From IMG/VR virus record IMGVR_UViG_2778261354_000012: DNA of 6,163 nucleotides. One strand, 5' to 3'. Origin of the DNA: a virus. Lineage: Duplodnaviria; Heunggongvirae; Uroviricota; Caudoviricetes. The translations under genes were made by a program, and so were the position numbers. The notes below the pieces were generated by a model. The model ran no database searches. It was not told the origin of the DNA and worked only from the letters and a program-made list of their open reading frames with translations. This document shows positions 203 to 1,787 of the stretch, piece after piece. Position 1 is the stretch's first letter. Each line of letters begins with the position of its first letter.

Positions 203-1516
203 ATGGCAGTAAAGATTTCAGGTGTACTGAAAGACGGCACAGGAAAACCGGTACAGAACTGCACAATCCAGCTGAAAGCAAAACGTAACAGCACCACGGT
301 GGTGGTGAACACGCTGGCCTCAGAAAATCCGGATGAAGCCGGGCGTTACAGCATGGACGTTGAGTACGGTCAGTACAGCGTTATTCTGTTGGTGGAAGGG
401 GTCCCGCCGTCACATGCCGGGACCATCACCGTGTATGAAGATTCTCAGCCGGGTACGCTGAATGATTTTCTCGGTGCCATGACGGAGGAGGATGCCCGGC
501 CGGAGGCACTGCGCCGTTTTGAACAGATGGTGGAAGAGGTGGCGCGTCACGCTGAGGAGGCGAAGAAGAATGCCGGAGAGGCGGAGACGTCAGCGAGGAA
601 TGCCGGCATATCAGCCAGTCAGGCAGAAGAGAGCGCTGCAAATGCTGACACTTCAGCAGGGGAGGCATCGGAGTCAGCCCGGCAGGCGGCAGAAAGTGCA
701 GCCTCAGCAAAGCAGTCAGAGGATGCGTCCTCGTCCTCGGCTTCTGCGGCCGCTCAAAAAGCCAGTGAGTCATCACAAAGTGCAGCAGAAGCTGAATTGT
801 CAAGAAAGACGGCAGAAAGTGCAGCCGGTAATGCAGCCAGGGATGCAACGACCGCAACAGAAAAAGCCCGGGAGTCAGCAGAAAGCGCACAGTCAGCGGA
901 ACAAAGCAGGATAGCGGCGGAAGAGGCCGTAAACCGAATCCCCACCGTGGTGGGACCTCCCGGGCCAAAGGGGGAACAGGGGCCCGCGGGTCCTCAGGGG
1001 CCGAAGGGTGATAAGGGAGAGCGCGGTGACACCGGCCCTGTCGGGGCAACCGGCGAACGGGGACCGGCAGGTGATGCTGGTCCGGCAGGCCCGCAGGGGC
1101 CGAAAGGTGACAGGGGAGAGCGGGGAGAGACCGGTCTGACGGGAAATGCAGGTCCACAGGGTCCAAAGGGAGATACCGGTGCGGCAGGCCCGGCAGGCCC
1201 ACAGGGACCGAAAGGAGAAACAGGTGCGGCTGGCCCGGTGGGGGCAACCGGACCTCAGGGACCGAAGGGCGACCCGGGGGAGACACAAATCCGTTTTCGT
1301 CTGGGGCCGGCGAGCATTATTGAGACAAACAGCAATGGCTGGTTCCCGGGTACAGATGGTGCGCTCATCACCGGACTGACCTTTCTTGACCCCAAAGATG
1401 CCACACAGGTTCAGGGGCTGTTTCAGCATTTGCAGGTCAGGTTTGGTGACGGGCCGTGGCAGGATGTTAAGGGGCTGGATGAAGTGGGCAGTGATACAGG
1501 CAGAACAGGAGAATGA
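203..1516 (+). CDS. stf: Lambda Stf-like side tail fibre protein with a collagen-like repeat region (437 aa)
   Basis: ORF-track protein 197..1516; I place the start at ATG 203 (the track starts at GTG 197) because lambda Stf begins MAVKISGVLKDGTGKPVQNCTIQLKA, which this N-terminus matches closely from memory. It is followed by an Ala/Ser/Glu-rich low-complexity segment, then uninterrupted G-X-Y triplets, then a non-collagenous C-terminal domain. Stop TGA 1514..1516. Confidence 0.9.
   Translation: MAVKISGVLKDGTGKPVQNCTIQLKAKRNSTTVVVNTLASENPDEAGRYSMDVEYGQYSVILLVEGVPPSHAGTITVYEDSQPGTLNDFLGAMTEEDARPEALRRFEQMVEEVARHAEEAKKNAGEAETSARNAGISASQAEESAANADTSAGEASESARQAAESAASAKQSEDASSSSASAAAQKASESSQSAAEAELSRKTAESAAGNAARDATTATEKARESAESAQSAEQSRIAAEEAVNRIPTVVGPPGPKGEQGPAGPQGPKGDKGERGDTGPVGATGERGPAGDAGPAGPQGPKGDRGERGETGLTGNAGPQGPKGDTGAAGPAGPQGPKGETGAAGPVGATGPQGPKGDPGETQIRFRLGPASIIETNSNGWFPGTDGALITGLTFLDPKDATQVQGLFQHLQVRFGDGPWQDVKGLDEVGSDTGRTGE
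953..1279 (+). repeat. Collagen-like G-X-Y triplet repeat region inside stf (about 36 triplets, GP(Q/A)GPKG-type)
   Basis: Translation GPPGPKGEQGPAGPQGPKGDKGERGDTGPVGATGERGPAGDAGPAGPQGPKGDRGERGETGLTGNAGPQGPKGDTGAAGPAGPQGPKGETGAAGPVGATGPQGPKGDPG with Gly at every third residue. The GC-rich periodic DNA also explains the long stop-free reverse-strand ORFs in the track. Confidence 0.85.
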
Positions 1517-1517
1517 C

Positions 1518-1787
1518 ATGAACGTACTAAAAAAACTTATGCAGCGTCTGTGCGGGTACGGAAAGCATGATGACCGTGAACACGGGGAGTTACTTACAGC
1601 ACAACTGCGTCTGGGACCGGCAGACATTCTGGAGTCAGATGAGAATGGCATTATTCCGGAGCAGGACAGGGTAATCACGCAGGTGGTGATACTGGATGCA
1701 GATAAAAAGCAGATACAGTGCGTGGTAAGACCGCTGCAAATTCTGCGTGCTGACGGGACGTGGGAAAATATTGGCGGGATGAAGTAA
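1518..1787 (+). CDS. Small phage protein (89 aa), paralogue of the Stf C-terminal domain; function unknown (possible alternative fibre tip or assembly factor)
   Basis: ATG 1518 lies 1 nt after the stf stop and is preceded by AGGAG (1506..1510) at good spacing, suggesting translational coupling. The product MNVLKKLMQRLCGYGKHDDREHGELLTAQLRLGPADILESDENGIIPEQDRVITQVVILDADKKQIQCVVRPLQILRADGTWENIGGMK aligns with the Stf C-terminus IRFRLGPASIIETNSNGWFPGTDGALITGLTFLDPKDATQVQGLFQHLQVRFGDGPWQDV (shared RLGPA, NG, LD, LQ, DG-W). The track ORF 1386..1787 is the same frame with an upstream start inside stf, which I discount. Confidence 0.6.
   Translation: MNVLKKLMQRLCGYGKHDDREHGELLTAQLRLGPADILESDENGIIPEQDRVITQVVILDADKKQIQCVVRPLQILRADGTWENIGGMK

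Follow-up and report, generated by a model that had tools for sequence, protein, structure and literature searches.

Mondal et al. (2016; PMC5155283) described in the short-tailed Shiga toxin (Stx) phage Sp5 a polypeptide of 89 aa with a PfC (Phage_fiber_C) domain, the product of open reading frame (ORF) 68 (ECs1229 by our numbering). The same gene is present in phi24B (gp59), phage 434 (CPT_434B_24) and AU6Stx1 (atfT), in each case directly after the gene for a PfC-tipped collagen fibre. Its names differ: in the GenBank record of AU6Stx1 (KU977420) the ORF is labelled "atfT, alternate tail fiber tip", while the phage 434 record calls it "tail fiber assembly chaperone", apparently by position. 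In the present study we analysed a 6,163-nt stretch of tailed-phage DNA (Caudoviricetes; IMG/VR record IMGVR_UViG_2778261354_000012), hereafter the window, in which an ORF of 89 codons follows stf, the gene for the side tail fibre Stf. This small ORF is the same gene, with 91–99% identity to the known counterparts over 89 residues (91% in the case of Sp5 ORF68) and the same junction with the fibre gene. The window, unlike a short-tailed Stx phage, is the right end of a long-tailed lambdoid prophage of an attaching-and-effacing Escherichia coli, where the gene lies beside nleB2 cargo; otherwise there is no difference of substance.

The window thus adds no new entity: the gene is annotated, the family, its domain content and its puzzling nature are already known (PF06820, phrog_576, the annotation pipeline PGAP, KU977420, PMC5155283), and the oddity has been in print since 2016. 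A sequence-only reading of the same DNA had described the sequence features of the small ORF correctly, but was unaware of the existing annotation and of the printed discussion. What we add are selection figures, strict co-occurrence with the fibre, a diverged cassette in a contractile-tail prophage, the age of the duplication, a conserved terminator and a possible fold link to the Mu fibre. We conclude that the small ORF is a genuine late gene, the product of which is a free-standing paralogue of the PfC tip of the fibre. As to its role, we lean, at slightly less than an even chance, towards a dispensable, probably trimeric partner of the fibre tip that is not obligatory.

The stf gene (positions 197–1516; like lom, the hairpins, the SD sequence, the small ORF and nleB2 described below, on the + strand) encodes a collagen-like fibre of 439 aa with the architecture that Ghosh et al. 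(2012, PMC3368898) named "EPclA", comprising PF08400 (aa 3–135), a coiled coil, a collagen region (PF01391) and the PfC tip (PF06820, aa 365–428, positions 1289–1480), which matches its profile over the full length (E = 3.5e-36, 123.8 bits). The small ORF (1518–1787, 89 aa plus stop) consists of (i) an N-terminal extension of 27 aa (1518–1598) without counterpart in Stf, predicted to form a helix followed by a Cys/Gly-rich charged linker, and (ii) a PfC domain (aa 28–89, 1599–1784), which covers positions 1–64 of the 64-position PF06820 profile (E = 5.2e-36, 123.3 bits, cut-off 25). The two copies score equally against PF06820, and the small ORF also matches phrog_576 over 89 of 89 positions (E = 1.1e-59).

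The claim that the small ORF duplicates the C-terminal domain of Stf was borne out by BLASTP (24 identities in 62 residues, 39%, E = 4e-12, Stf 366–427) and by a Smith-Waterman score of 110, compared with 22.2 +/- 3.9 (maximum 47) for 500 shuffled sequences (z = 22.6). The nucleotide identity of the two PfC copies is about 52%, although one codon-aligned stretch of 42 nt (1298–1339 versus 1608–1649) reaches 71%. PF06820 was the sole Pfam match of the small ORF at E <= 1 and no NCBIfam family was matched at E <= 0.01; the absence of any tail-fibre-assembly family from these searches agrees with the remark that the product does not resemble lambda Tfa (tail fibre assembly) protein. Sequence searches of the PDB with the small protein and with the profile gave no significant match.

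The junction is equally clear. The Shine-Dalgarno (SD) sequence AGGAG (1507–1511) lies within the last stf codons, 6 nt before the ATG of the small ORF; the stf stop codon TGA occupies 1514–1516 and is separated from the ATG at 1518 by a single C at 1517, exactly as the sequence-only reading had it. Its proposal of a duplicated domain translationally coupled to stf is upheld by this junction together with the homology.

For comparison we collected 80 IMG/VR loci and three others, which with the window make a set of 84. In all collected loci the small ORF lies downstream of a Stf-type PfC at identical spacing. It is intact in 82 of the 84, the two damaged copies having a stop or a lost start, and the arrangement of SD, stop and ATG is likewise kept in 82/84 loci, barring a synonymous change of codon 2 and one substitution upstream of the SD. 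Among 56 distinct alleles the synonymous diversity was 0.125 and the non-synonymous diversity 0.0136, which gives a ratio of non-synonymous to synonymous diversity (pN/pS) of 0.109. The constraint is concentrated in the PfC part (pN/pS 0.044, with pS about 0.13), the 27-aa leader being at 0.305, while the PfC of Stf itself has a pN/pS of 0.224, with variable residues that form patches across its first two thirds. The small ORF is under strong purifying selection.

The unit of stf and small ORF is closed by an intrinsic terminator hairpin, AAAACCGGAG-TCCGG-CTCCGGTTTT followed by TGTT (1802–1830), beyond which variable cargo begins. A perfect hairpin with a T-run was present at most 90 nt past the stop of the small ORF in 78 of 79 loci, as confirmed by a custom scan; the consensus terminator scan had missed the hairpin in this position, since the T-run forms part of the stem. 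The flanking sequences diverge only beyond the terminator, and an apparent jump in diversity at 1788–1817 is partly an artefact of A-run length.

In the phage collection, 296 records contained a Stf-type PfC (all at >= 80% identity) and 296 contained the small ORF (all at >= 60%, a floor well above the 39% of a cross-match between the two copies). The two sets agree in number and make-up, and they include the plaque-forming phages 434, 933W, VT2-Sakai, phi24B and BP-4795. The co-occurrence of the small ORF with the PfC-tipped fibre is therefore strict (296/296 phage records). The complete E. coli genomes numbered 5426, of which 698 had the gene, the median copy number being 10. A scan of genome contigs gave no match beyond E. 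albertii and one contig of 725 nt under the name of Xanthomonas pisi (L083, NZ_JPLE01000138.1), which carries an E. coli-type Stf PfC and small ORF at 91–92% identity and most likely represents contamination of the X. pisi assembly. In locus L022 (2990–3030) the AGGAG has lost a G (AGAG), which places stf in frame with the small ORF; a stop is also present at codon 8, and this is a decaying copy rather than a natural fusion.

A profile search over 1.8 billion representative proteins revealed a more distant relative of the small ORF, the 79-aa protein P0225. This orthologue of the small ORF (79–80 aa) is encoded in three contigs (L087, L088 and L091). In all three it begins inside the final part of a short fibre gene, the two genes having 14 nt in common, and the last ~70 residues of the fibre are a diverged PfC. 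An AGGAGG precedes the orthologue ATG by 6 nt in L087 and L088, a position as in the window, and the N-terminal start M-x-I-[LF]-K-K is common to the 89-aa and 79-aa proteins. The short fibre of L087 follows baseplate spike-, W-, J- and I-like genes; their relatives in E. coli, at 77% DNA identity, carry annotations as baseplate proteins of contractile tails. The deep profile search also returned Escherichia-type fragments, plus repetitive SprB and CarboxypepD_reg proteins, matched over many short stretches, that we took as motif noise, and a metagenome scan for a third, deeper cassette lineage returned only the two known ones.

Between the two cassettes, the PfC identity is 66% for small versus small protein, 39% for fibre versus fibre and 31–41% for small protein versus fibre. 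By these values the duplication of PfC is ancient, as it predates the split of the two cassettes, and the small copy is the slower-evolving one. The fibre tip and its small paralogue form a mobile two-gene cassette, located in the slot usual for tfa: in PhiR29_1, where Stf has a different, unrelated tip, the same slot is occupied by a canonical Tfa. The cassette has moved among long-tailed lambdoid phages, short-tailed Stx phages and a contractile-tail prophage.

Structure prediction with AlphaFold2 of the whole 89-aa protein from a shallow alignment gave a predicted local distance difference test score (pLDDT) of 59.5, unusable for a fold search; in the first model the leader contained a low-confidence helix (aa 3–11), with pLDDT < 50 for aa 1–4 and 10–24. 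When the PfC part alone was modelled from a more diverse alignment, a six-strand all-beta model with a pLDDT of 77.9 was obtained, which agrees with the low helix content seen for PfC by circular dichroism (PMC3368898). Foldseek comparison of this model with predicted viral structures retrieved tail-fibre proteins of unrelated phages at query TM-scores of 0.6–0.7. On visual comparison, Mu S and S' have at their very C-terminal ends the pattern RLG...V(I/V)TG...RP(I/V)Q...NGTWYN in common with PfC, but a profile comparison of PfC with Mu S/S' was not significant (E = 0.48); we regard the fold link between PfC and the Mu fibre as suggestive only. If it is true, PfC belongs to a broad kind of distal fibre domain that is served in Mu by the Tfa protein U.

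We also noted a metagenomic, fibre-like protein of 565 aa (P0234) with four tandem PfC-like modules of ~70 residues (TKTVVVLDAD...ILQVRRADGTWxEIPALKG) followed by collagen repeats; PfC-like knobs are therefore stackable and not confined to C-termini.

Published work has shown that the gene is translated in lytic growth and that it is dispensable for plaque formation and for lysogenisation of K-12. The proteome spreadsheet of a cryo-EM preprint on phi24B (2026) lists two peptides unique to gp59, ADGTWENIGGMK and VITQVVILDADKK, in purified virion samples, with a value of 3 for each in the count column, compared with 38 for one fibre peptide (fibre total 2267). The protein group is labelled "Spike or just gp59?", fusion sequences having been added to the search database, and the per-band counts did not separate free gp59 from a fusion. 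The small protein is thus produced, but purified virions contain no more than a trace of it.

In the explanation that we favour, the small protein is made from the stf message by coupled initiation at its own SD and ATG, its gene being the last before the conserved terminator. It would form a homotrimer, in which a short N-terminal helix and linker precede the PfC knob; trimerisation is probable by analogy, because the isolated Stf-type PfC is a trimer (size-exclusion chromatography with multi-angle light scattering) that nucleates the refolding of the collagen helix, Col-PfC refolding quickly (Ghosh et al. 2012, PMC3368898). Most likely the trimer would be a partner of the fibre, though not an obligatory one, with its action on or at the tip; it may help or proofread the trimer nucleation of the collagen fibre, or may loosely bind the finished tip, and is probably not a stoichiometric part of the virion.

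Several observations weigh against this explanation. In Sp5, where in-frame, marker-free deletions were made in a K-12 lysogen without other copies (some genes being deleted en bloc), ORF68 is among the non-essential late genes, while the fibre gene ORF67 is essential (PMC5155283); in the laboratory, therefore, any role in assembly is a small one. The small protein is not needed for recombinant full-length fibre and Col-PfC to become trimers in E. coli, the fibre forming trimeric dumbbells (PMC3368898). The small ORF has no sequence similarity to any Tfa family in Pfam or NCBIfam, and the trace amounts in phi24B virion preparations make stable capping of every fibre unlikely. Furthermore, the binding of the small protein to Stf is putative, the structure models being of monomers. 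The same results divide the suggestion that the small protein is an assembly factor mimicking the fibre C-terminus: the gene position fits, but an obligatory chaperone is contradicted by the non-essential ORF68 and by the ability of the fibre and of PfC to trimerise unaided.

In a further version of this partnership, which we consider unlikely, the small trimer would represent a new kind of fibre partner, a paralogue of the tip that replaces Tfa and docks end-on to the PfC knob, as a non-covalent "split tandem" resembling the covalent repeats of P0234.

It is unlikely that the product acts outside the fibre pathway altogether, as a free, soluble mimic of the tip that is released at lysis and binds the target of the tip, thereby shielding the progeny from debris or blocking the receptors of neighbours, or in some other extra-virion role. 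A protein of the same fold as the tip, probably trimeric, made late and in step with the fibre (as the junction indicates), dispensable for phage production in Sp5 and present at trace level in purified virions would suit this role. However, a mimic of the receptor face should track the tip, yet the small PfC hardly varies, in contrast to the patches of variation in the tip of the fibre. That the cassette is strictly linked in all three tail types points to a partnership of the two proteins; in addition, we saw neither a signal peptide nor a lipobox on reading the small ORF, and the phi24B preprint argues against BamA as the receptor of the PfC tip. The broader notion of an alternative or decoy tip, put forward from the sequence, is neither shown nor excluded when set against the trace presence in phi24B virions and a PfC far less variable than that of the fibre's tip.

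Mondal et al. proposed an "intragenomic reservoir" for fibre variation (PMC5155283), in which the second PfC is kept as a donor and recombination with the fibre PfC changes the tip. A deletion between the two copies within the codon-aligned 42-nt stretch would indeed give an in-frame tip swap, genomes of enterohaemorrhagic E. coli (EHEC) offer a median of 10 copies, and the protein collection contains two hybrids, one with collagen fused to a small-type PfC (P0062) and the other with the N-terminus of the small ORF fused to a Stf-type PfC (P0184). We nevertheless regard this proposal as distinctly doubtful. For a silent donor an SD, an ATG and an intact 27-aa leader would be superfluous, yet all are kept in 82/84 loci, and peptides of the small protein have been detected. 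Moreover, the small copy varies less than the other (pN/pS 0.044 versus 0.22), which is the opposite of a diversity store, the DNA identity between the copies is only about 52%, and a swap would delete the donor and so be possible only once. Among the best 120 of 171 relatives of the small ORF none exceeds 131 aa, i.e. a full-length fibre that ends in a small-type PfC is absent from these; P0062, located at the edge of its contig, may be an artefact of assembly and is unreliable evidence for tip swapping. A search of viral contigs for a chimeric junction of Stf and small ORF gave 0 matches, with little power given that the parental control pattern gave only 12.

Equally improbable, in our judgement, is a stoichiometric distal adhesin or cap, in which the small trimer docks on the PfC knob of the fibre and is the true host-contacting tip. 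Such an arrangement has analogues, as gp38 of T2 sits on gp37 and U of Mu on S, and it would accord with the gene position behind the fibre gene, the tandem PfC-like beads of other fibres and the peptides in virion samples. Against it, the peptides are counted at most about a tenth as often as those of the fibre (3 versus 38), the gene is non-essential in Sp5 where the fibre is essential, and very low variability is unusual for a host-contacting surface.

The label atfT implies a programmed +1 frameshift in the last part of stf, by which a minor fibre species would be extended into the small ORF and so gain a different or tandem tip; we consider this very improbable. The KU977420 record does predict a +1 frameshift, with a pseudoknot as well as a slippery sequence. 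Relative to stf the small ORF occupies the +1 frame, here and in L087, and in the window that frame is open for 46 codons upstream of the ATG; tandem PfC-like modules occur inside single fibre proteins elsewhere (P0234), and the authors of the phi24B study included fusion sequences in their mass spectrometry database. However, the upstream peptide of the +1 frame varies freely, and stops are found 10 and 13 codons before the ATG in two otherwise normal alleles and 2 codons before it in L087; only the last few codons could therefore be used for a slip. On reading the sequence we saw no known +1 slip site there, GAA-UGA-C re-pairing poorly in the +1 frame, and RNA folding of 1440–1560 was no better than that of shuffled sequences (z = 0.30). 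The features that mark programmed frameshifting in lambda G/GT (slip site, stimulatory element and constraint on the overlapping frame) were accordingly not found at the stf/small-ORF boundary, and Mondal et al. also failed to find a frameshift signal (PMC5155283). In the available part of the phi24B proteome, the peptides listed for the fusion entries outside gp61 are just the two common to stand-alone gp59, and the canonical SD and ATG offer a simpler account of expression.

To the view that the small ORF is a decaying, functionless remnant of a tip exchange, which the sequence-only reading had listed as a relic of domain exchange and which could appeal to its dispensability in Sp5 (PMC5155283) and to the 2/84 copies with a stop or lost start, we assign almost no probability, as it is refuted by the selection and synteny results: a PfC pN/pS of 0.044 at a pS of 0.13, an intact ORF and unchanged junction in 82/84 loci, presence in 296/296 phage records, a 66%-identity orthologue in identical arrangement in another tail type, and the detection of peptides in phi24B. 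An intramolecular chaperone domain of the endosialidase or T5 pb1 type was also rejected, as Pfam gave no Peptidase_S74 match in Stf or the small ORF, and the latter is a separate gene with its own start.

The first 2.4 kb of the window are 99.9% identical to chromosomal loci of several E. coli strains, in which the small ORF has the PGAP name "phage tail fiber C-terminal domain-containing protein". The fibre module is preceded by the 3' end of lom (1–138), encoding an Ail/Lom outer-membrane protein (PF06316, profile positions 157–199 of 199, E = 3.9e-19; so annotated by PGAP in the identical E. coli loci), and by an intrinsic-terminator-like hairpin with a T-run between lom and stf (165–196; scan match AGCCCGCCGGTTCAGGCGGGCT, then TTTTTGTGGG). 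The first cargo gene past the module is the type III effector gene nleB2 (1964–2944; PF24688 SseK_NleB, E = 3.3e-181; name from PGAP). It is followed by a truncated nleC-like ORF (2978–3268), whose 96 aa cover positions 1–64 of the 251-position Peptidase_M85 profile, phage 434 having a full nleC in the equivalent place. An NleH/OspG-type effector kinase (3577–4497) is split into three overlapping ORFs (3577–3702, 3662–4366 and 4363–4497), of which the middle one is a weak OspG_kinase match; this is probably a frameshifted pseudogene. An NleF-like caspase-inhibitor effector of 189 aa (4552–5121; PF16809, E = 5.8e-8) is intact.

In several loci the 3' end of the small ORF is present once more, as a partial third copy 1–2 kb downstream, i.e. 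in L033, L060, L064, L065, L075 and L076 (~4048–4116), L072 (5384–5452) and L079 (4436–4504). It mostly corresponds to aa 58–80 at 78% identity (aa 67–89 at 91% in L079) and resembles a scar that was left at the boundary of the module when cargo was inserted or exchanged. The diverged cassette also precedes effector-like ORFs, with the motif CPITLCVPEKGVF (L088, 4269–5003) or CICVPDNGVF (L087, 4417–5034 and 7335–7709), which we take to resemble NleG-type effectors; cargo is therefore found behind the fibre module in the diverged lineage too.

PfC-tipped collagen fibres are present on most Stx-converting and effector-carrying prophages of EHEC and enteropathogenic E. coli, and the short-tailed Stx2 phage Sp5 cannot do without its fibre. 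No part of the fibre module is more constrained than the small paralogue. If it is true that the small protein modulates fibre assembly or host recognition, this bears on the spread of Stx phages and on the engineering of fibre tips.

One of the known systems close to the small ORF is the PfC of EPclA and EPclB, where this domain is a trimerisation module that caps the collagen helix (PMC3368898). Both belong to PF06820 and match its profile over the full length. In contrast to that PfC, with which its identity is only 39%, the small protein is free-standing. A 27-aa leader stands where the collagen would be, the DEVGSDTGRTGE tail is missing, and the constraint is about five times stronger.

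The presence of two versions of a tip domain at one locus recalls the DNA-inversion systems of Mu (G segment) and P1 (C segment) and the diversity-generating retroelements. Tip diversification of either type was rejected. Unlike the Mu and P1 segments, the two copies in the window are on the same strand, with inverted repeats at chance level only and no ORF for an invertase; unlike the template and variable repeats of retroelements, they share only ~52% DNA identity, and no reverse transcriptase ORF is present in the window.

The comparison with the Tfa proteins (lambda Tfa, Mu U/U', P2 G; Caudo_TAP) is of a different kind. The small ORF differs from them in having no sequence similarity and in being a paralogue of the tip itself; according to the literature it is also not needed for functional fibre assembly, being not required for infectivity in Sp5, while the fibre folds without the small protein (PMC5155283, PMC3368898). 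On the other hand, like a tfa gene it lies directly after the fibre gene, is coupled to it and travels with the tip between unrelated tails, and the Mu S/S' fibre, which is served by U/U', may have a fold akin to that of PfC. By sequence the small ORF thus stands outside the Tfa proteins, whereas by position and co-transfer, i.e. the junction kept in 82 of 84 loci, the 14-nt overlap in the diverged cassette and the slot filled by Tfa in PhiR29_1, it stands among them.

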